From: Mycobacterium leprae TN
GTDB taxonomy: Bacteria; Actinomycetota; Actinomycetes; Mycobacteriales; Mycobacteriaceae
Assembly: GCF_000195855.1 (NCBI RefSeq)
Contig: NC_002677.1
Coordinates: 1-32,000 of the forward strand
Direction: 5' to 3'
Length of the DNA: 32,000 nucleotides
The notes beneath the pieces are model-generated. The model ran no database searches. It had not been told where the DNA came from and saw only the letters and a list, made by a program, of their open reading frames with translations. Shown here piece after piece: positions 7,318-19,023 of this stretch. The position numbers and the translations under genes were made by a program. The number at the start of each line of letters is the position of its first letter. Within the stretch, counting starts at the first letter, position 1.

Positions 7318-10300
7318 ATGACTGATATCACGCTGCCACCAGGTGACGGTTCTATACAGCGGGTTGAGCCGGTCGACATTCAGCAGGAAATGCAGCGCAG
7401 CTATATTGATTACGCGATGAGTGTGATTGTGGGCCGGGCGTTGCCTGAAGTCCGCGATGGTCTCAAACCGGTACATCGTCGGGTCTTGTACGCGATGTTA
7501 GACTCCGGTTTCCGCCCGGACCGTAGCCACGCTAAGTCAGCACGGTCAGTCGCTGAGACGATGGGCAATTACCATCCGCACGGCGACGCATCGATTTATG
7601 ACACGTTAGTGCGCATGGCGCAGCCGTGGTCGCTGCGGTATCCCTTGGTTGATGGGCAAGGCAATTTCGGTTCGCCGGGTAATGACCCACCGGCAGCGAT
7701 GCGTTATTGTGTGTCAGGAAATTCCTTGGTGAGGTTGCTATTTGGGAAATCAATACGAATCGGTGATATCGTTACTGGAGCTCAGTTCAATTCGGACAAT
7801 CCGATCGACTTGAAGGTTCTTGATCGGCATGGTAATCCGGTTGTAGCCGATTATTTATTCCATTCAGGAGAGCACCAAACCTATACAGTGCGCACCACTG
7901 AAGGCTATGAGATCACCGGGACGTCGAACCATCCCTTGTTGTGTTTAGTGAATGTCGGCGGTATACCCACCTTGTTGTGGAAGCTGATTGGAGAAATTCG
8001 ATCAGGAGACTACGTTGTTTTACAGCGGATCCCACCAGTGGAATTTGGTCCGGCGGACTGGTATTCTACGATGGAAGCATTGTTATTCGGAGCCTTTATT
8101 AGTGGGGGCTTCGTTTTTCAGGACCATGCTGGATTTAACAGCCTTGACCGTGACTATTTCACCATGGTTGTTAATGCTTATGATACGGTTGTGGGTGGCC
8201 TGCGTTGCATATCTTCTCGAATCACCGTATCGGGGTCGACGCTACTCGAACTTGATGTTTATAACCTCATCGAGTTTAAGAAGACAAGACTTAGCGGTTT
8301 ATGCGGGCAACGGTCTGCGGACAAGTTGGTACCTGACTGGTTGTGGCACTCACCTTCCACCGTCAAACGAGCATTCCTTCAGGCATTGTTTGAAGGTGAA
8401 GGATTTTCTTCGATATTGTCGCGAAATATAATTGAGATTTCCTACTCGACACTTAGTGAGCGACTGGCCGCCGACGTCCAGCAGATGCTGCTTGAATTCG
8501 GAGTCGTGTCTGAGCGCTATTGCCATACTGTCAATGAGTACAAGGTTGTCATAGCTAACCGCGCTCAAGTAGAAATGTTTTTCACCCAAGTCGGTTTCGG
8601 TGTTACTAAACAAGCTAAGCTTATCCGGGACGTGGTATCTATGTCTCCATGCGTTGGCATGGATATCAACTGCGTACCAGGTTTGGCCACTTTCATTCGT
8701 AAGCATTGTGATAACCGCTGGGTCGAGGAAGACTCATTTAATCAGCATAATGTTGATTGCGTCCAACATTGGCACCATCATAGCGCGGAAATCGTCGGCC
8801 ACATCGCCGATCCCGATATTCGTGCCATCGTGACTGACCTTACTGATGGCCGGTTCTACTACGCGCGCGTCGCGTCCGTGACTGATACCGGTATTCAACC
8901 TGTGTTCAGTCTACATGTGGACACCGAGGATCATTCGTTTTTGACTAATGGATTCATCAGCCATAACACCGAGGCTCGGCTTACTCCATTGGCGATGGAA
9001 ATGTTGCGCGAGATCGACGAGGAGACAGTTGATTTCATATCTAACTACGATGGCCGGGTGCAGGAACCGATGGTGTTGCCTAGCCGTTTTCCCAACCTGT
9101 TGGCTAATGGTTCTGGCGGTATCGCGGTCGGCATGGCTACCAATATCCCGCCGCACAACCTGTATGAGCTCGCCGACGCTGTGTTTTGGTGCCTAGAGAA
9201 CCATGACGCTGACGAAGAGACGATGCTGGTCGCTGTTATGGAACGGGTCAAAGGTCCTGATTTCCCTACCGCCGGGTTGATTGTCGGTTCGCAAGGCATT
9301 GCCGATGCTTACAAGACTGGCCGTGGTTCCATTCGGATACGCGGAGTTGTTGAGGTTGAAGAAGATTCACGCGGAAGGACGTCATTGGTCATCACTGAGC
9401 TACCGTATCAGGTCAACCACGACAACTTCATCACTTCTATCGCTGAGCAAGTCCGCACTGGCCGGCTAGCCGGCATCTCCAATGTAGAAGACCAAGGCAG
9501 CGACCGGGTTGGTGTACGTATCGTCATCGAGATCAAGCGTGACGCGGTGGCCAAAGTGGTGCTCAATAACCTGTACAAGCATACTCAGCTGCAAACTAGT
9601 TTCGGAGCCAACATGTTGTCAATCGTTGACGGCGTGCCGCGCACTTTGCGGTTGGATCAGATGATTTGTTATTATGTCGAACATCAACTGGACGTCATTG
9701 TCCGGCGCACTACCTACCGATTGCGTAAAGCCAACGAGCGGGCTCATATTTTGCGTGGATTGGTCAAAGCGCTCGATGCGTTAGATGAGGTTATTACGTT
9801 GATTCGGGCATCGCAGACCGTGGATATTGCTCGTGTTGGGGTGGTCGAGTTACTCGATATCGACGACATTCAGGCTCAAGCTATCCTGGACATGCAGCTG
9901 CGGCGTTTGGCGGCTTTGGAGCGTCAACGCATTATTGATGATCTCGCTAAGATTGAGGTCGAGATCGCTGATCTGGGAGATATTCTGGCTAAGCCGGAGC
10001 GTCGGCGTGGTATCATTCGTAATGAACTGACTGAGATCGCAGAGAAGTACGGTGATGACCGTCGTACTCGGATAATAGCGGTTGATGGTGATGTCAACGA
10101 CGAGGATTTGATTGCTCGTGAAGAGGTCGTTGTCACGATAACTGAAACTGGATATGCTAAACGTACTAAAACTGACCTGTATCGCAGCCAGAAACGCGGC
10201 GGGAAAGGTGTTCAAGGCGCCGGTTTGAAGCAGGACGACATCGTCCGGCATTTCTTCGTGTGTTCAACTCACGATTGGATCCTGTTTTTCACCACCCAAG

Positions 10301-11067
10301 GCCGCGTATACCGGGCCAAGGCCTATGAATTGCCAGAGGCTTCTCGAACGGCACGCGGGCAACACGTGGCCAATTTGCTTGCATTCCAGCCTGAAGAGCG
10401 CATCGCTCAGGTAATTCAGATCCGTAGCTATGAAGACGCTCCATACTTGGTCCTTGCCACGCGCGCCGGTCTGGTTAAGAAGTCAAAGTTGACCGATTTT
10501 GACTCTAATCGTTCGGGTGGGATCGTGGCAATTAATTTACGTGACAACGATGAGTTGGTCGGTGCAGTGTTGTGCGCGGCCGACGGCGACTTGCTTCTGG
10601 TATCGGCTAACGGCCAGTCTATCCGGTTCTCAGCGACTGACGAGGCCTTGCGTCCGATGGGGCGGGCTACCTCTGGTGTGCAGGGCATGCGGTTTAACGC
10701 CGATGATCGACTGTTGTCGTTGAATGTGGTTCGCGAAGATACTTACCTGCTTGTCGCAACGTCTGGGGGTTACGCTAAACGCACCTCGATTGAGGAGTAC
10801 CCGATGCAGGGCCGTGGCGGAAAGGGTGTTCTAACGGTCATGTACGATCGTCGGCGCGGTAGCTTGGTTGGGGCCATCGTGGTTGATGAAGACAGCGAGT
10901 TGTACGCGATCACCTCAGGGGGTGGGGTAATTCGTACAACGGCACGCCAGGTTCGCCAGGCAGGACGCCAGACCAAGGGTGTTCGGTTGATGAACTTAGG
11001 TGAGGGCGACACGCTGTTAGCCATCGCACGTAATGCCGAAGAAAGCGCCGACGGCGGTGTCGGTTAA
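7318..11067 (+). CDS. gyrA: DNA gyrase subunit A precursor (intein-containing)
   Basis: 1249-aa ORF. The N-extein ends at the AAMRY active-site Tyr130. The C-extein resumes at TEARLTPLAMEML and continues through the GyrA core and the C-terminal beta-pinwheel repeats. GAGGA at 7309-7313 precedes the ATG. Confidence 0.96.
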   Translation: MTDITLPPGDGSIQRVEPVDIQQEMQRSYIDYAMSVIVGRALPEVRDGLKPVHRRVLYAMLDSGFRPDRSHAKSARSVAETMGNYHPHGDASIYDTLVRMAQPWSLRYPLVDGQGNFGSPGNDPPAAMRYCVSGNSLVRLLFGKSIRIGDIVTGAQFNSDNPIDLKVLDRHGNPVVADYLFHSGEHQTYTVRTTEGYEITGTSNHPLLCLVNVGGIPTLLWKLIGEIRSGDYVVLQRIPPVEFGPADWYSTMEALLFGAFISGGFVFQDHAGFNSLDRDYFTMVVNAYDTVVGGLRCISSRITVSGSTLLELDVYNLIEFKKTRLSGLCGQRSADKLVPDWLWHSPSTVKRAFLQALFEGEGFSSILSRNIIEISYSTLSERLAADVQQMLLEFGVVSERYCHTVNEYKVVIANRAQVEMFFTQVGFGVTKQAKLIRDVVSMSPCVGMDINCVPGLATFIRKHCDNRWVEEDSFNQHNVDCVQHWHHHSAEIVGHIADPDIRAIVTDLTDGRFYYARVASVTDTGIQPVFSLHVDTEDHSFLTNGFISHNTEARLTPLAMEMLREIDEETVDFISNYDGRVQEPMVLPSRFPNLLANGSGGIAVGMATNIPPHNLYELADAVFWCLENHDADEETMLVAVMERVKGPDFPTAGLIVGSQGIADAYKTGRGSIRIRGVVEVEEDSRGRTSLVITELPYQVNHDNFITSIAEQVRTGRLAGISNVEDQGSDRVGVRIVIEIKRDAVAKVVLNNLYKHTQLQTSFGANMLSIVDGVPRTLRLDQMICYYVEHQLDVIVRRTTYRLRKANERAHILRGLVKALDALDEVITLIRASQTVDIARVGVVELLDIDDIQAQAILDMQLRRLAALERQRIIDDLAKIEVEIADLGDILAKPERRRGIIRNELTEIAEKYGDDRRTRIIAVDGDVNDEDLIAREEVVVTITETGYAKRTKTDLYRSQKRGGKGVQGAGLKQDDIVRHFFVCSTHDWILFFTTQGRVYRAKAYELPEASRTARGQHVANLLAFQPEERIAQVIQIRSYEDAPYLVLATRAGLVKKSKLTDFDSNRSGGIVAINLRDNDELVGAVLCAADGDLLLVSANGQSIRFSATDEALRPMGRATSGVQGMRFNADDRLLSLNVVREDTYLLVATSGGYAKRTSIEEYPMQGRGGKGVLTVMYDRRRGSLVGAIVVDEDSELYAITSGGGVIRTTARQVRQAGRQTKGVRLMNLGEGDTLLAIARNAEESADGGVG
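7708..8967 (+). mobile_element. GyrA intein with LAGLIDADG homing-endonuclease domain
   Basis: 420 codons are inserted directly after Tyr130. The first residue is Cys (CVSGNSLV), the last two are His-Asn (FISHN), and the next extein residue is Thr. These are canonical class 1 splice junctions. Two LAGLIDADG-like blocks are present (LLFGAFISGGFVF and FLQALFEGEGFSS). The reading frame is uninterrupted. Confidence 0.92.
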
Positions 11068-11194: not shown

Positions 11195-12106
11195 GTGACG
11201 TCACCGAACGAATCGAGGGCCTTCAACGCGGCCGACGACCTGATTGGGGATGGTTCGGTCGAGCGTGCCGGTCTACATCGCGCAACGTCTGTACCGGGAG
11301 AGTCATCGGAGGGTCTCCAAAGGGGCCACAGCCCGGAACCCAACGATTCACCGCCCTGGCAGCGTGGGTCCGCCCGAGCTTCCCAGTCCGGTTATCGCCC
11401 GTCAGATCCGCTCACCACTACACGGCAGTCGAATCCAGCACCAGGTGCAAACGTCCGGTCGAACCGCTTTATCTCCGGCATGACTGCACCGGCGCTGAGC
11501 GGACAGCTGCCCAAGAAGAATAACTCAACACAGGCATTGGAACCTGTTCTGATGTCTAACGAGGTTCCATTCACTGAATCGTACGCTAGCGAGTTACCAG
11601 ATTTGTCCGGACCAGTCCAGAGGACCGTACCGTGCAAGCCCTCGCCCGATCGTGGTTCCAGCACACCGCGGATGGGACGTCTAGAGATTACCAAAGTGCG
11701 AGGAACCGGTGAAATCCGGTCCCAAATATCGCGCCGAAGCCATGGACCGGTTCGGGCTAGCATGCAGATCCGGCGGATTGATCCATGGAGCATGTTGAAG
11801 GTGTCCCTGTTGCTCTCGGTTGCGTTGTTCTTTGTCTGGATGATCGCGGTGGCGTTCCTATACTTATTGCTCGGCGGTATGGGGGTGTGGGCAAAGCTCA
11901 ACAGTAACGTTGGTGATCTTCTAAACAACACCGGCGGAAATAGCGGAGAACTTGTCTCCAACAGCACCATCTTCGGTTGTGCCGTCTTGGTCGGCTTAGT
12001 CAACATTGTGTTGATGACTACGATGGCCGCTATCGCTGCGTTTGTCTACAATTTGTCCTCCGATTTGGTCGGCGGTGTTGAAGTCACTCTCGCAGATTTA
12101 GATTAG
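11195..12106 (+). CDS. Conserved membrane protein (Rv0007-like)
   Basis: GTG start preceded by AAGGAG (11184-11189). The N-terminal half is Pro/Ser-rich and probably disordered. Two hydrophobic helices lie near the C-terminus ([26 protein letters not shown] and [27 protein letters not shown]). The gene is syntenic after gyrA. Confidence 0.85.
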
Positions 12107-12193
12107 GTTGTGGCGATGTTGTTTGAGGGTTCGTTTTTTGGGGTGAGGTTCTAATAACTGCGGTAATCTCGTTGCTCGGTTATACGCAAGTAA

Positions 12194-12267
12194 GGGCCTA
12201 TAGCTCAGGCGGTTAGAGCACTTCGCTGATAACGAAGAGGTCGGAGGTTCGAGTCCTCCTAGGCCCA
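12194..12267 (+). tRNA. ileT: tRNA-Ile (anticodon GAT)
   Basis: GGGCCTATAGCTCAGGCGGTTAGAGCACTTCGCTGATAACGAAGAGGTCGGAGGTTCGAGTCCTCCTAGGCCCA folds as a cloverleaf. The acceptor stem is GGGCCTA/TAGGCCC, the anticodon stem is CTTCG/CGAAG with loop CTGATAA, and the T loop is GGTTCGAGTCC. No CCA is encoded. Confidence 0.95.
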
Positions 12268-12403
12268 CAACTATGTGTACGTCAAGATGTTGTGTGAAAT
12301 TTGCGTTCTTGCTGGTCTCGGTCGCTGTGGTGGTAGTAGTGCAGTCACGACACGGCGTTGGAGTTTGGAACGTGGCGGCATTTGGCATACTCGATAATGA
12401 CGG

Positions 12404-12476
12404 GGGGCCTTAGCTCAGTCGGTAGAGCACTGCCTTTGCAAGGCAGATGTCAGGGGTTCGATTCCCCTAGGCTCCA
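12404..12476 (+). tRNA. alaT: tRNA-Ala (anticodon TGC)
   Basis: GGGGCCTTAGCTCAGTCGGTAGAGCACTGCCTTTGCAAGGCAGATGTCAGGGGTTCGATTCCCCTAGGCTCCA. It has the G3:U70 alanine identity pair, anticodon stem CTGCC/GGCAG with loop TTTGCAA, and T arm AGGGG-TTCGATT-CCCCT. Confidence 0.95.
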
Positions 12477-12509
12477 CAAACACAACCACAGCTAGACAGT
12501 GGTCTGCAA

Positions 12510-12530
12510 CTTCGGAATTTCCGAGGTTTT
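12510..12530 (+). terminator. Small hairpin plus T-run downstream of tRNA-Ala
   Basis: CTTCGG-aattt-CCGAGG is a 6-bp stem (one G:U pair) followed by TTTT, 34 nt after the tRNA end. Confidence 0.4.
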
Positions 12531-14039
12531 GAGGGGTCAGGCGTGATTACATTTTAACCACAATCGCGAGTTAACAGCGCATTGATGGCCATCTAGACCG
12601 CCTCGATATTCCGTCCGTATAGAAGTTATAAGTTGATTCAACATCAGCTCAGCAGGATCCAGGGAAAGCTGCTACGCTCGGACCGCCCGGCACCAGGAGC
12701 TCGTCGACAAACGTTGGCGAGCTGATCGTGTTCGCCTTGCTGCTCTTCAGTGACCTCACCACAAACACGTCGTCTACCAGTGTCAGTCGACCTCGGCATC
12801 CACACCTGCCGATTGTCGGTGACTGCTATTGCGAGCAACTGCCTAATAGTACCAACTATTTTGTGTATCGAAGACAGTTGCCCGATCTACATTCAGACCC
12901 GTAACTTACTCGCGAACAAATCGCTGACCGAGATAGCCCAACACCGTATTCAGTATTATCTGATATTGGGCGCGAATAGACTTCTTCATCAGTTTGTGCT
13001 TGGAGTCGAGCTATATCTGTGTTTACTCCTTCAGCTTTACTGGACTGGTGGCCGGCGTTATAGGCCAACGCGGCGCTGTTTACCTCAAGCTGATTCGCCC
13101 ACGTTCTGATAAGAACGCTTGGTCGGAAAGCCTTGCTTCGTTGTTTGACGACGACCGTCAGGAGTCTTGTACTGTGGTCTGATATTGGATTGCATAACTT
13201 GAGGTTTCTTACCGTTCTAATTGTTGCCATAAGTGTTTTGTCGGACTGATCTCAACTGGATGGTCTTGACCGATACTCTAGGCAAAAGTGTTTCGTCCTG
13301 TAACTTATCCCTGACGAACTGTTTTCTGCAGTTCGGATAGCTCGGTCGCCTTACCTTCTTGACCTTTCTGCCATGATCTGAGGCTAATATCACTGCTTGA
13401 TTTACGAAAGATTGTTGTTAAGATATACTAGTTAATAAGTGCGGCTGACCTCGGTGCTGTGGCAGTGGTCCTTGATGTTTGGCCTGTTGGGAAAATGTTA
13501 ATGGATATACGTGCTGTTTACGCTTCGTTACTGTAGGGCTGAATGCCGTACAAAATCAAAAAATGTATTGGCGAACAACTTATTTAGGTTTAGTAGGTTG
13601 TTTATAGTTAATAATATGCTACAAGCACGGTTGTACTACTAGTGGTGTTTAGTCACCCTACTTGACTGGACAAGGAGAATTTTTTAGCAGGGAAATATAT
13701 TCTTTGTGCAAATTTTCGTTCTGGATGAACTTTTGCCGTAGATAGATCTATTTTAATCTGCTGGAGAGCTTCTCATGAGATTATGTGTGTTCACCGGTAC
13801 CGTAGACGCTGGTGGCGACCATTATATGTTGGTGGTAATGTTGGTCATTATTGTTACGTCTGCCGTTACGACGGCGATATGCGACTTGCTTGGCAGTTTT
13901 TATTACCCACTTAAGCATGTTTTTGCCACGAAATGCGGACGCTTCGTAATTATTTATTTGTCCTAACGGGACACCACCTCGTGATTTGTCTTACCGACAA
14001 TAGTCATTAATCCTCCGTCACGGGTTTGTCGTCACAGAT

Positions 14040-15280
14040 CAACTCTTGTCCGACCCTATCGATCTATGGCTTCCGGTTGCTTACTCATCTATACCAGTAT
14101 TTCCTAATTTTCTTTGGGATTAATTGCAAGATTTCGATCAGGTTATTTGGTATGTGCTAGCAGATTAATTCGTAATTCCGGATATGCATCTTTTGAGCTA
14201 GACTAGGAGAATATATACATACATACATATATATATATATAGATGTAAATCTTCGAACTTGTAATTTAGAGCCGATAAAGTACGGGTCATCTGGCGCAGA
14301 TAGACAGTTGAGTATGCGTGTTGATTGATTTTTTACAACATGAAGTAAGCTGAGGTTAATTTCTGAACCTGATCGGTATTTCTGGTATAAAATTCTTTTT
14401 TACACACGTCTATCACCTAAAAATGCTCTTCTAGTGTGGATGAGTTTCATGTTTGTAAATGGGTCAGTGGATAGCTTGGTTGGGTAATTTCCAGGTCTTG
14501 TGCGGATAAAATTCCTGCGGCACCTGAAATGGAATGCTGGTGAGAGCTTCACGCGGCGTATAGCGACCAGATCCCCCATCTGAGTGAAGTACGAATTCGT
14601 TGAACAGTCTCGTAACCGTGTTTTCGACGAAGTACTTTATTGTGTTAACAACGCTGCCGGTCTTCTAATGGAGACCTGAGAATAGACTTTTCCAAGCCTT
14701 CATTAAGGCTAGCATGCATTGTTTATTACCACTTTATTCATATATAATTATGATTTCATCTGGCTGCTTAATGGAAGCCTGGAATAAATGTTGAAATATT
14801 GTGATTTAAGCCATGTCGAAGGTGTCCTGGGAAGACCTCCACGTGGGTTTTTGTTGGTTGATTATAATTCGAAAGTCCCGTACTCCAATATGGTTCTCAT
14901 CTGTGCAGGAATCGAAAGAAAATCCAGTAACTAATATGTTGATAGTTCGGTTTGAAAAAATTCAGTGTTCGGAGGTGAAATTACACATATAAGAAGGCTA
15001 ATCTTAATTTATTTCCAGACATCGATGCCGTATTTTACCCGGATTTTTCACTGTAGATCTAAAATCATAGCGAAGGGATCTGGTCATTTATCATTTTCAA
15101 CAAAAAGCATCCTAAACCACAACAGTTGGATGATTTAACAAAAGCTGGATCACCAGTTTTTTAGGTCTCATCGATATACACAAGAATCACATTTCTGAAG
15201 GTTATGACCAGACAAGTGCGAAAGTAGCCACTTTCCGTACACAGTTAAAAATTTGTTAACCACAGTTGTTTTTCACATTT
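14040..15280 (-). mobile_element. IS3-family insertion sequence relic (orfA/orfB pseudogenes)
   Basis: Minus-strand translation with one frameshift and several in-frame stops gives NTVTRLFNEFVL, then LPNQ (14476-14487), then TDPFTNMKLIHTRRAFLGD (AFLGD at 14412-14426), then RRV*KRILYQKYRS, then FIGSKLQVRRF (14247-14279), then IRNYEL. These line up in order and spacing with IS3-family OrfB motifs, using IS6110 as recalled: TVERLM, PNRLW, DLTYV...AFVTD, ARRILGWRVAS, DRGSQYTSIRF, YDNALAE. The first-D to second-D spacing is 45 versus 47 residues. Upstream, SGHNLQKCDSCVYR followed by TGA resembles the OrfA HTH that ends in YRW. Confidence 0.5.
14211..14241. repeat. Compound microsatellite (AT)3A-(CATA)3-(TA)7
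   Basis: atatatacatacatacatatatatatatata, read directly from the sequence. It lies inside the transposase relic. Confidence 0.9.
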
Positions 15281-15318
15281 GATCCTAGATATAATTTTTC
15301 ACTTTATAGTATAATTAA

Positions 15319-15366
15319 CCTTTGCAAGACAGGTGTCAAAGATGCGATTTCCTTAGGTTCTACAAA
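15319..15366 (+). repeat. Degenerate direct repeat of the tRNA-Ala 3' half (anticodon loop to 3' end): att-type pseudo-tRNA fragment
   Basis: Ungapped alignment of 15319-15366 (cctttgcaagacaggtgtcaaagatgcgatttccttaggttctacaaa) with 12433-12480 (cctttgcaaggcagatgtcaggggttcgattcccctaggctccacaaa) gives 38/48 identities. Eight of the 10 mismatches are G-to-A or C-to-T in the distal copy. Confidence 0.8.
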
Positions 15367-15422
15367 ATCTTGAAACCTGCTACGGACGCTTGACAAGAAC
15401 GAATGTTCACTTACAGCCATAG

Positions 15423-15831
15423 CTATACGTCGAAGCTGGCTGGGCGAGGTGACAGCTCCGAACGCAATGAGCACCAGATAGTGCTAAAAACCATTTCAAC
15501 ACCGGCCAGGACTGACTATGCTGATCGTACCGATCATACAAGGGTAGCTTGGTGTTGCGGTCGGTGTTCTTGTCGCAACACCTGCGGCAGGTTTGCGACT
15601 ACTGCCTGCGCGGCTGCCAGCTCCTAGGTGACTGTTTCCTGGATGGAAGCAAAGTATGGAAGCAAAGTTTGGAAGCTAGTCCGCCTTCCTTGAGCTTGAG
15701 GCGGTCGACCGCAAGGTAATGAGACTTAAAGTCCAACAGTGCCTTGTGTGACATCTACCAGTCCCAGTGGCCGAGTAGGTCAGGCCTTGGGTCAGTAGTT
15801 CTCGAGAGGTTAGCCGCGTTTCCGTCTACAC
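15423..15831 (-). pseudogene. cwsA: cwsA (Rv0008c-like) pseudogene
   Basis: Minus-strand translation gives V*TETRLTSRELLTQGLTYSATG, then a frameshift, then LVDVTQGTVGL*, then LAVDRLKLKEGGLA, then IQETVT*ELAAAQAVVANLPQVLRQEH..TLV*, and finally VLAG..SPRPASFDV*. This follows M. tuberculosis CwsA as I recall it (VETRLTPRERLTRGLAYSAVGPVDVTRGLLELG...QETLAQELTAAQDVVANLPQALQDAR...SPRPPSVEV). It contains at least four in-frame stops and at least one frameshift. Confidence 0.7.
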
Positions 15832-15992
15832 GTTTATCCACCGCTTTTCTTTGCCTCTTACGAATCGATACCTCTCCCAGCCTGCCATCACCTAAAAACG
15901 CCCATAGTTCTATTACATGCACACTGGTCGTATAGCGCTGCGACAATAGCTAGGTTTCATGTGACACCGGATGTGAACGTACTGGTGAGTTA

Positions 15993-16541
15993 ATGGCACA
16001 CTGTGATTTTGTGACCAACAGCCTTATTCAGAATGCCACTGCCACGTTACACACCAACCGCGGCGACATCAAAGTCGCCCTGTTCGGAAACCACGTGCCC
16101 AAGACTGTCGCCAACTTCGTTGGGCTGGCGCAAGGCACCAAGGAGTACTCGACGCAAAACGCGTCAGGTGGTCCTTCCGGCCCGTTCTACGATGGGGCGG
16201 TTTTTCATCGGGTGATTCAAGGCTTCATGATTCAGGGTGGGGATCCAACCGGGACAGGTCGTGGCGGCCCAGGCTATAAGTTCGCCGATGAATTCCACCC
16301 TGAGCTTCAGTTCGACAAACCCTACCTGCTAGCGATGGCCAATGCGGGCCCGGGTACTAACGGTTCTCAGTTCTTCATCACCGTAGGCGAGACTCCACAC
16401 CTGAATCGGCGACACACGATCTTTGGCGAAGTGACCGACCCTGACTCGCAGAAGGTCGTCGATGCGATTTCGACGACAGCTACCGATGGCAACGACCGGC
16501 CTACCGAACCGGTTGTGATTGACTCGATCACAATTTCTTAG
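15993..16541 (+). CDS. ppiA: Peptidyl-prolyl cis-trans isomerase A (cyclophilin)
   Basis: 182-aa ORF with cyclophilin signatures [33 protein letters not shown] and HTIFGEV. Confidence 0.95.
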
Positions 16542-18324: not shown

Positions 18325-19023
18325 ATGCGGATCTTGGTCATTGACAACTATGACAGCTTTGTGTTCAACCTGGTACAGTATCTCGGGCAGCTCGGAGTAG
18401 ACGCTGAGGTGTGGCGCAACGACGATACCCGATTATCCGACGAATCCACTATCGCTGCACAGTTCGACGGTATCCTGCTTAGTCCAGGTCCTGGCACTCC
18501 GGAACGTGCGGGGGCGTCGATCAATCTGGTCCGGGTGTGCGCCGCGGCGCACACCCCATTGCTAGGAGTCTGCCTGGGCCACCAGGCTATTGGCGTATCG
18601 TTCGGCGCCACCGTGGACCGCGCTCCCGAGTTGTTACACGGCAAGACCAGCAGTGTATTTCATACGAATAACGGTGTGCTACAAGGACTTCCAAATCCAT
18701 TCACGGCTACCCGATATCATTCATTAACTATCTTGCCGGAGTCACTTCCGCCGGTATTGGAGGTCGTCGCGCGCACACGTAGCGGTGTGATCATGGCGGT
18801 GCGTCACACCGAGTTGCCGATCCACGGTGTCCAGTTCCACCCGGAGTCGATCTTGACCGAGGGTGGGCATAGACTGTTGGCTAATTGGCTGACCTATTGC
18901 GGATGGTTGTGTGACGACGCACTGATCCGCCGACTTGAGAATGAGGTCGATGCTGCGGTCCATCCGCGTCTACCGGTGGCCGCGGAGCGCACCGCTGCTG
19001 CTATTGCCCGAACTTTAGCGTGA
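18325..19023 (+). CDS. trpG: Glutamine amidotransferase, anthranilate/para-aminobenzoate synthase component II
   Basis: 232-aa class I GATase. It has MRILVIDNYDSFVFNLVQYLG, the nucleophile motif LGVCLGHQAIG, and the catalytic HPES. Confidence 0.93.
   Translation: MRILVIDNYDSFVFNLVQYLGQLGVDAEVWRNDDTRLSDESTIAAQFDGILLSPGPGTPERAGASINLVRVCAAAHTPLLGVCLGHQAIGVSFGATVDRAPELLHGKTSSVFHTNNGVLQGLPNPFTATRYHSLTILPESLPPVLEVVARTRSGVIMAVRHTELPIHGVQFHPESILTEGGHRLLANWLTYCGWLCDDALIRRLENEVDAAVHPRLPVAAERTAAAIARTLA

Follow-up and report, generated by a model that had tools for sequence, protein, structure and literature searches.

A probable relic of a phage-like tyrosine-integrase element in alaT, close to the replication origin of Mycobacterium leprae

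A displaced copy of the alaT 3′ part and an integrase relic

In the window analysed here (positions 1–32,000 of the chromosome of Mycobacterium leprae TN), the tRNA-Ala gene alaT is followed by 2.9 kb of DNA that is very probably a decayed phage-like tyrosine-integrase element, inserted in the 3′ part of that gene. The observations that carry this conclusion are a direct repeat of the tRNA 3′ part at the two ends (that is, the left and right attachment sites, attL and attR), an integrase relic beside the tRNA gene, orthologous relics in relatives, an empty site in another relative and an intact family of elements with the same junction. An initial annotation of this DNA had taken the repeat for the attL/attR footprint of a tyrosine-integrase element and the interval for an ancient island or prophage that was captured and then eroded, and this interpretation is supported by the integrase pseudogene beside the tRNA, the empty site, the intact family and a decayed orthologous repeat in Mycobacterium lepromatosis.

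For comparison, a genome contig scan based on the PpiA protein returned 80 mycobacterial loci (L001–L080), M. leprae, M. lepromatosis and Mycobacterium haemophilum not being among them; close relatives were reached via homologues of the upstream DUF3566 protein ML0007 and by exact-protein look-ups. The loci so added are M. lepromatosis (L081), M. haemophilum (L084), a further relative (L085; ENA ERZ1079237), and Mycobacterium uberis (L087); IMG/VR proviruses (L088–L097) complete the set. The tRNA gene, the ends of the putative element and its integrase relic lie as follows.

12404..12477, plus strand: functional tRNA-Ala(UGC), alaT, its 3′ part being the attL side (ARAGORN, 12404–12477; Rfam tRNA family, 74 bits, 12404–12476)
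12432..12479, plus strand: 48-bp attachment-site identity block, from the anticodon stem/loop to 2–3 nt past the discriminator base; the same block bounds the M. haemophilum element and the intact provirus L097
12503..13195, minus strand: tyrosine-integrase pseudogene, unannotated, 3′ end toward the tRNA (blastn and tblastn to the M. haemophilum integrase gene, int, and IMG/VR integrases)
15269..15317, plus strand: element-side arm adjoining attR, with homology to the right-hand terminus of the element in M. haemophilum (blastn, 15308–15371 against L084 18708–18771; tblastx, 15269–15370 against 18669–18770)
15318..15366, plus strand: decayed attR, a displaced copy of the tRNA-Ala 3′ part (block previously given as 15319–15366; 38/48 to 12433–12480)

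Pairwise alignment reproduced the repeat that had been reported: positions 12433–12480 and 15319–15366 align without gaps and agree at 38 of 48 sites, for which the chance expectation is about 1e-11 (binomial, over the 3.5 kb downstream of the tRNA), and the best of 100 shuffles reached 28/48. The repeat is not dispersed within the window, where no further match of at least 31/48 occurs on either strand and the neighbouring tRNA-Ile gene reaches 30/48. It runs, as annotated, to 3–4 nt beyond the tRNA gene (which ARAGORN recovers as tRNA-Ala(tgc) at 12404–12477), but its onset lies in the anticodon stem, 2 nt ahead of the anticodon loop, and not in the loop. The 48-bp register of the intact repeats described below begins one base earlier (12432/15318), giving one additional G>A change. 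Overall, attR is about 80% identical to the tRNA-Ala 3′ halves of many mycobacteria and 79% identical to its own attL. The earlier count of the differences also stands (in 8 of the 10, the distal copy has A for G or T for C), although one that had been ascribed to decay of that copy does not belong there: at 12447, where the two copies differ as A/G, the distal copies, both M. haemophilum copies and the L085 tRNA all have G, and on this outgroup comparison the difference is not decay of the distal copy. We also considered the same site as a sign of an element-donated tRNA 3′ half and dropped this reading, given that both variants are common in mycobacterial tRNA-Ala genes.

The boundary at the distal end is shared with other elements down to the nucleotide. 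In M. haemophilum and in the proviruses L090, L096 and L097, the distal copy is preceded by TGATTCG and tRNA similarity starts at the identical nucleotide; the junction motif (TGATTCG followed directly by CCTTTGCAAGG) is common to the intact elements and persists in degraded form in M. lepromatosis (CGATTCAT followed by CTTTGC) and M. leprae (TAATTAA followed by CCTTTGC). Upstream of the distal copy, no similarity to the tRNA 5′ half was found in M. leprae, M. lepromatosis, M. haemophilum or the intact elements. These observations bear on the alternative that the distal copy is a tRNA pseudogene left by local tRNA duplication, with the integrase fragment arriving separately. Such an origin has a parallel at the same locus in M. 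parascrofulaceum (L019), where two complete tRNA-Ala genes lie 6.7 kb apart. However, the similarity in M. leprae ends sharply at the anticodon stem with no trace of a 5′ half (as in M. haemophilum and the intact elements), the breakpoint is the nucleotide used by the intact elements and follows the element-specific TGATTCG in decayed form, and the integrase relic has the canonical position and orientation. We therefore regard local duplication as very improbable, and retain insertion of an element into alaT as the explanation of the repeat.

Homologues of the integrase relic are the PF00589 integrases that M. haemophilum and the IMG/VR elements encode. Positions 12542–13061 are collinear with M. 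haemophilum int in three blastn pieces (85%, 72% and 70% identity), and tblastn pieces cover amino acids 3–70, 72–98, 168–225 and 295–321 of the M. haemophilum protein at up to 74% identity; with the full-length intact IMG/VR integrases as tblastn queries, the homology widens to 12503–13189 and takes in the N-terminal arm-binding region. Relative to the integrases of the alaT-element family, the fragments are 40–75% identical, and their frame read-out gives LDSKHKL...RFVRE together with an arm-binding-like IRPQYKTPDGRR motif. Given that the homology is scattered over all three minus-strand frames and that two stretches of about 70 codons are gone, the gene is dead; most of the catalytic domain was lost through these two large deletions. 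Among sequenced phages in the phage collection, the nearest integrases (Gordonia and Mycobacterium phages) do not exceed 37% identity, and the source can therefore not be assigned to a named phage.

Relatives at the locus and an intact provirus family

The M. lepromatosis interval is collinear with that of M. leprae from end to end (81% identical by the tRNA, 65–79% inside), holds a more complete integrase relic (11310–12287) and ends in a decayed attR (L081 14807–14854). With the intact 48-mer as the ancestral form, the M. leprae copy has undergone 10 changes and the M. lepromatosis copy 9, and 5 are identical in both (G>A at 48-mer positions 1 and 22; C>T at 36, 41 and 44). These shared derived changes indicate that attR was already decaying in the common ancestor and, consequently, that the insertion predates the split between the two leprosy bacilli. 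In M. uberis, a C-terminal int fragment lies beside alaT and is followed by 1.5 kb at 33–38% GC (guanine plus cytosine). The M. uberis interval between alaT and cwsA (L087 11300–12800) is lower in GC than its M. leprae counterpart, and its cwsA is intact (81% to M. haemophilum CwsA). L085 has an empty site, in which alaT, 360 bp and cwsA follow one another and int homology is absent; this arrangement is equivalent to the one that the initial annotation gave for M. tuberculosis. The comparison of relatives that had been proposed as a check thus yields an element with a perfect repeat in M. haemophilum, an empty site in L085 and an orthologous relic in M. lepromatosis; in non-degraded relatives, the DNA is not repeat-free core sequence.

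The alaT–cwsA interval of M. haemophilum spans about 9 kb, with the PF00589 integrase encoded on the minus strand at the tRNA end. The order is alaT, an IS481-family insertion, int, a primase fragment, a capsid-like gene, a DUF4238 gene, an HTH_17/excisionase-like gene, a PIN gene and a perfect 48-bp copy of the tRNA 3′ part, the two copies (GCCTTTGCAAGG...GGCTCCACAA) lying at L084 11239 and 18718 and matching at 48/48 positions. This element is itself defective: a deletion runs from int codon ~104 into the middle of the primase gene, and the IS481-family transposase gene separates alaT from int (L084 11376–12560 and 13625–14261). Searches of the phage collection and of IMG/VR gave no match to its capsid-like protein.

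Intact relatives are found among IMG/VR proviruses, 10 of which encode integrases 72–80% identical to that of M. haemophilum. In L090, L096 and L097, int ends about 55 bp from the tRNA-Ala gene and is convergent with it, as in M. leprae, and in L097 two copies of the 48-bp block, one at each end, lie 10.74 kb apart. Between these ends, L097 encodes an integrase (Arm-DNA-bind_4), an AAA_25 primase/helicase, an HNH endonuclease, a large terminase, an SPP1-type portal, a scaffold-like protein and an HK97-type major capsid protein, and no tail genes were found in it. The intact elements have 64–65% GC. The 120 closest homologues of the capsid protein include no M. tuberculosis protein and consist only of 'phage major capsid protein' entries from mycobacteria. 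Many Logan contigs of 10.6–11.4 kb (that is, the size of a whole element) carry the capsid gene (P0128, P0148, P0153, P0163, P0184, P0187, P0188, P0204 and P0207), and these may be excised circular or multicopy forms.

Across the 80 mycobacteria, the distance from alaT to ppiA varies from 49 bp to more than 10 kb, with many loci at only 500–900 bp; partial tRNA-Ala repeats occur at five loci (L009, L012, L019, L021 and L029), and C-terminal int fragments lie beside alaT or in the interval at five (L006, L013, L019, L021 and L029). On the basis of this variable spacing, the repeats and the integrase fragments, alaT by the origin is, as far as these comparisons go, a hot spot at which elements have integrated repeatedly in Mycobacterium, and it is used by a widespread ~10.7-kb family with head genes only. 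The alaT–ppiA interval of L006 contains Fic, PE and PPE genes. A small open reading frame (ORF) and two DprA-domain fragments recur near alaT (L084 18767–20228, L021 5110–7652 and L068 6422–8967); the DprA fragments lie outside the repeat in M. haemophilum (1.46 kb between attR and cwsA) and inside it in L021, which suggests that this set is a second, separate island at the alaT hot spot.

A locus so often used raises the alternative that the M. leprae interval is what remains of at least two successive insertions (that is, tandem accretion) and not of one element. The range of alaT–ppiA distances, the partial tRNA repeats with varied contents between them and the differing placement of the DprA fragments in M. 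haemophilum and L021 are all in keeping with accretion, yet the M. leprae interval contains a single decayed tRNA copy, both of its ends match one element family and its int–DUF4238 order is that of M. haemophilum. We consider accretion unlikely and continue with a single element.

Interior, base composition and decay

The interior of the relic and its right-hand neighbour comprise the following features; the coordinates of the annotated coding sequences and the table of single-nucleotide polymorphisms (SNPs) used below are from Benjak et al. 2018 (Suppl. Data 2), whose AL450380.1 numbering fits the window exactly.

12856..13230, minus strand: annotated coding sequence ML0008c, 124 amino acids (Benjak et al. 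2018, Suppl. Data 2)
13597..13947, minus strand: probable relic of a DUF4238 gene, as in the M. haemophilum element (three collinear tblastn pieces)
13775..13966, plus strand: annotated coding sequence ML0009, 63 amino acids, antisense over the DUF4238 relic (Benjak et al. 2018, Suppl. Data 2)
13948..15268, no strand assigned: AT-rich remainder, 36–43% GC, without detectable homologue (composition; Pfam and tblastn nulls)
15426..15834, minus strand: cwsA pseudogene ML0010c, the chromosomal neighbour beyond the insertion (tblastn with M. haemophilum CwsA; annotation coordinates)

A six-frame Pfam scan of 12480–15320 returned nothing but a sub-threshold Collagen_bind match, so the relics are visible only against close homologues. 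The DUF4238 assignment is probable in this sense: its three pieces keep their spacing and reach a sum E value of 1.5e-5 in a small database, which is weak evidence, and the orthologous stretch of M. lepromatosis matches DUF4238 across 259 amino acids (E value 1.5e-7). The order of int followed by DUF4238 is common to M. leprae and M. haemophilum. The HTH_17 and PIN proteins of M. haemophilum have no match in M. leprae, M. lepromatosis or M. uberis. Beyond the DUF4238 relic, 13948–15268 aligns with M. lepromatosis at 65–74% identity with no conserved island. An AT/ATAC microsatellite at 14211–14241 (Tandem Repeats Finder) is apparently the strain-typing marker 'TA11CA3', a short tandem repeat located between ML0009 and ML0010 (PMC6449029). 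Nothing in the comparisons made here indicates a surviving function in the relic, in which we found no block conserved against M. lepromatosis, no Rfam family and no Pfam domain.

The statement that the interval has almost no ORFs holds for the sequence, but its two short ORFs are annotated as coding sequences, ML0008c and ML0009. ML0008c lies nearly entirely within the integrase pseudogene, in the sole minus-strand frame without integrase homology, and the M. lepromatosis DNA aligned to it has stop codons in all three frames; ML0009 is likewise broken by stop codons in M. lepromatosis. As neither is an ORF in M. lepromatosis, both are probably non-genes, ML0008c being an out-of-frame ORF in the integrase pseudogene. 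Peptide p38 of ML0008c, TRLLTVVVKQRSKAF, holds the top rank among 'M. leprae-specific' T-cell peptides (PMC3335884), and ML0009 has been listed among highly polymorphic genes with possible positive selection (6 non-synonymous and 1 synonymous changes; Benjak et al. 2018, PMC5783932). We read the latter signal as neutral change in an unusually mutable stretch and not as selection.

The AT-richness noted initially is confirmed, as GC is 36–45% across 13250–15500 compared with 50–60% in the flanks, and the 36–43% stretch is the minimum of the window. One explanation would be that the interior is foreign AT-rich DNA from a low-GC donor (another island or AT-rich cargo) with its composition preserved, and the window minimum, the distal 1.3 kb without homologue in GC-rich relatives and the 33–38% GC at the same place in M. 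uberis can be read in this way. The recognizable parts of the element nevertheless have GC-rich homologues: int has 65–70% GC in M. haemophilum and 48–52% in M. leprae, DUF4238 58–59% and 36–44%, in both a fall of about 17 points, and the intact elements stand at 64–65%. The chromosomal cwsA pseudogene has fallen by a similar ~16 points (65–70% to 50–54%), 12 of the 14 independent changes inferred when both decayed attR sequences are set against the intact repeat as the ancestral state are GC>AT transitions (G>A or C>T), and the SNPs of present-day strains at the locus are mostly GC>AT. The GC-rich homologues and the polarized attR changes favour decay in place over a low-GC donor, which we hold to be quite unlikely, and support an interior that would have begun at 52–60% GC.

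The same stretch varies strongly among living strains. Across 154 M. leprae genomes, intergenic and pseudogene DNA carries 1.07 mutations per kb genome-wide, and polymorphisms cluster near the origin (Benjak et al. 2018, PMC5783932); from the per-feature counts of that study, 12480–15425 has 32 SNPs and 1 indel (about 11 per kb), and 10 of the 18 SNPs listed in 12492–13937 are GC>AT transitions. The relic has diverged further from M. lepromatosis (65–77% identity) than have neighbouring pseudogenes (75–77%). The SNPs over the slightly longer interval 12480–15992, again about 11 per kb, are mostly singleton GC>AT changes in different strains, and the coding DNA of the first 12 kb is about 3-fold enriched. 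Tentatively, we raise the possibility, which we regard as less than even, that the relic lies in a long-lived local mutational hot spot by the replication origin and ileT–alaT with a region-specific GC>AT process, caused, for example, by read-through transcription from the tRNA genes or by origin-proximal single-stranded DNA.

The surrounding gene order in the window is dnaA (1–1566), dnaN, recF, gyrB, gyrA (7318–11067, with an intein), the DUF3566 gene (11195–12106), tRNA-Ile, tRNA-Ala, ppiA (15993–16541) and pknB/pknA, up to tRNA-Leu. The cwsA relic ML0010c, said to adjoin the distal repeat, does so, with its start (15426) 60 bp beyond it. Published spacers and lengths are 376 bp for alaT–ML0008c, 375 nt for ML0008c, 192 nt for ML0009 and 1459 bp for ML0009–ML0010c (Benjak et al. 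2018, PMC5783932). A 13-bp insertion polymorphism at 12484 (A > AACCACAGCTAGAC, duplicating the adjacent sequence) occurs in lineage 3K1 (Benjak et al. 2018, PMC5783932) and lies directly beyond the tRNA/attL block. The cwsA pseudogene contains a 13-bp tandem repeat, ATGGAAGCAAAGT, in 2.6 copies (15643–15676). The gyrA products of M. leprae, M. lepromatosis, M. haemophilum and M. uberis (1245–1259 amino acids) contain the intein, and that of L085 (839 amino acids) does not. An Rfam scan found the two tRNAs only and no other family, a sub-threshold Plastid-ycf2 match antisense to tRNA-Ile being set aside as spurious.

The proposed insertion, its kin and its meaning

On the basis of these observations, we propose that a phage-like element of the kind that is intact in other mycobacteria (~10.7 kb) inserted into the 3′ part of alaT through integrase-mediated site-specific recombination between its attP (that is, the attachment site of the element) and the 48-bp alaT stretch from the anticodon stem/loop to just beyond the 3′ end. 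As the element brings its own copy of this stretch, the tRNA gene would have been rebuilt at one end (attL, 12432–12479) and a non-functional copy left at the other (attR, 15318–15366); under the standard model of integration, the rebuilt tRNA 3′ part would come from the element and attR would be the displaced chromosomal copy. The insertion would be older than the divergence of M. leprae and M. lepromatosis, and probably also older than the M. uberis branch. During reductive evolution, the element would then have lost its function, deletions would have brought it down to 2.84 kb, its integrase gene would have become a frameshifted stub, and the unselected attR and interior would have drifted under a strong GC-to-AT mutation bias. 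In this scenario, it is the original gene content of the leprae-lineage copy, the position of the crossover and the timing that we infer.

Several points weigh against this account. Nearly half of the relic (~1.3 kb, 13948–15268) is credited to the element solely because it lies between attL and attR; searches with the primase, large terminase, portal and major capsid protein of the intact elements gave nothing credible in the M. leprae interval (two marginal matches, 14502–14612), leaving no detectable relic of these genes; and the match to DUF4238 is weak. M. uberis has no recognizable attR (best match 26/48). Furthermore, M. haemophilum int is without the N-terminus that the leprae-lineage relic keeps, yet the M. 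haemophilum repeat is perfect, although neutral DNA would be expected to have diverged over such a time, so that the M. haemophilum element may be an independent later insertion of a related element and not an ortholog. Given the N-terminal loss and the perfect repeat, one ancestral insertion and a later independent insertion both stand, and the shared DUF4238 gene favours, by gene content, close kinship of the leprae-lineage and M. haemophilum variants.

K.P. Williams, in Nucleic Acids Res in 2002, is said to have described an anticodon-loop sublocation class, whose attP repeats the tRNA sequence between the anticodon loop and the 3′ end. The alaT relic resembles the tRNA-targeting tyrosine-integrase elements in its anticodon-to-3′-end repeat, the int gene beside the tRNA, the reconstituted tRNA, the empty sites and the genus-wide reuse of the site. 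Unlike active elements of this type, the M. leprae copy is dead, its integrase gene is frameshifted, its attR is down to 79% of attL and its cargo is deleted or unrecognizable. Its closest likeness is to the IMG/VR proviruses (from Mycobacterium and Mycolicibacterium) and to the element of M. haemophilum DSM 44634, with which it has in common the integrase family, the chromosomal target site (attB), the junction nucleotide and the int orientation. In contrast to the intact IMG/VR members, none of whose primase/helicase, HNH, large terminase, portal, scaffold and HK97 major capsid genes is detectable in M. leprae, both M. leprae and M. lepromatosis share a DUF4238 relic with the M. haemophilum variant instead. 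The phiRv1 and phiRv2 elements of M. tuberculosis and the capsid-forming phage-inducible chromosomal islands (cfPICI) are small elements that carry integrase, replication and head/packaging genes but no tail genes. The intact relatives (~10–11 kb; L097) resemble them in architecture, a likeness drawn by gene content alone.

Elements with tyrosine integrases that target tRNA genes are well known; the relic itself, its integrase pseudogene and its age do not appear to have been annotated before, and no earlier description of this relic was found in the literature searched, of which our coverage was partial. The M. leprae genome has been treated as free of horizontal gene transfer (PMC5783932). 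The relic shows that a phage-like element integrated in the leprae lineage long ago and gives this event a relative date, namely before the leprae/lepromatosis split, and its family can now be named through intact relatives. If ML0008c and ML0009 are both non-genes, the immunology of the former and the polymorphism of the latter are to be re-read; should the mutational hot spot be real, the 'positive selection' signal of ML0009 would be an artefact of neutral hypermutable DNA, and the locus would offer a natural record of mutational equilibrium in the leprosy bacilli. For the wider family, the alaT integrase/attB pair may be of use for integrating vectors. For the leprosy bacilli, attR offers a clean view of the GC>AT bias because its ancestral sequence is known, and can serve as a neutral reference for it.

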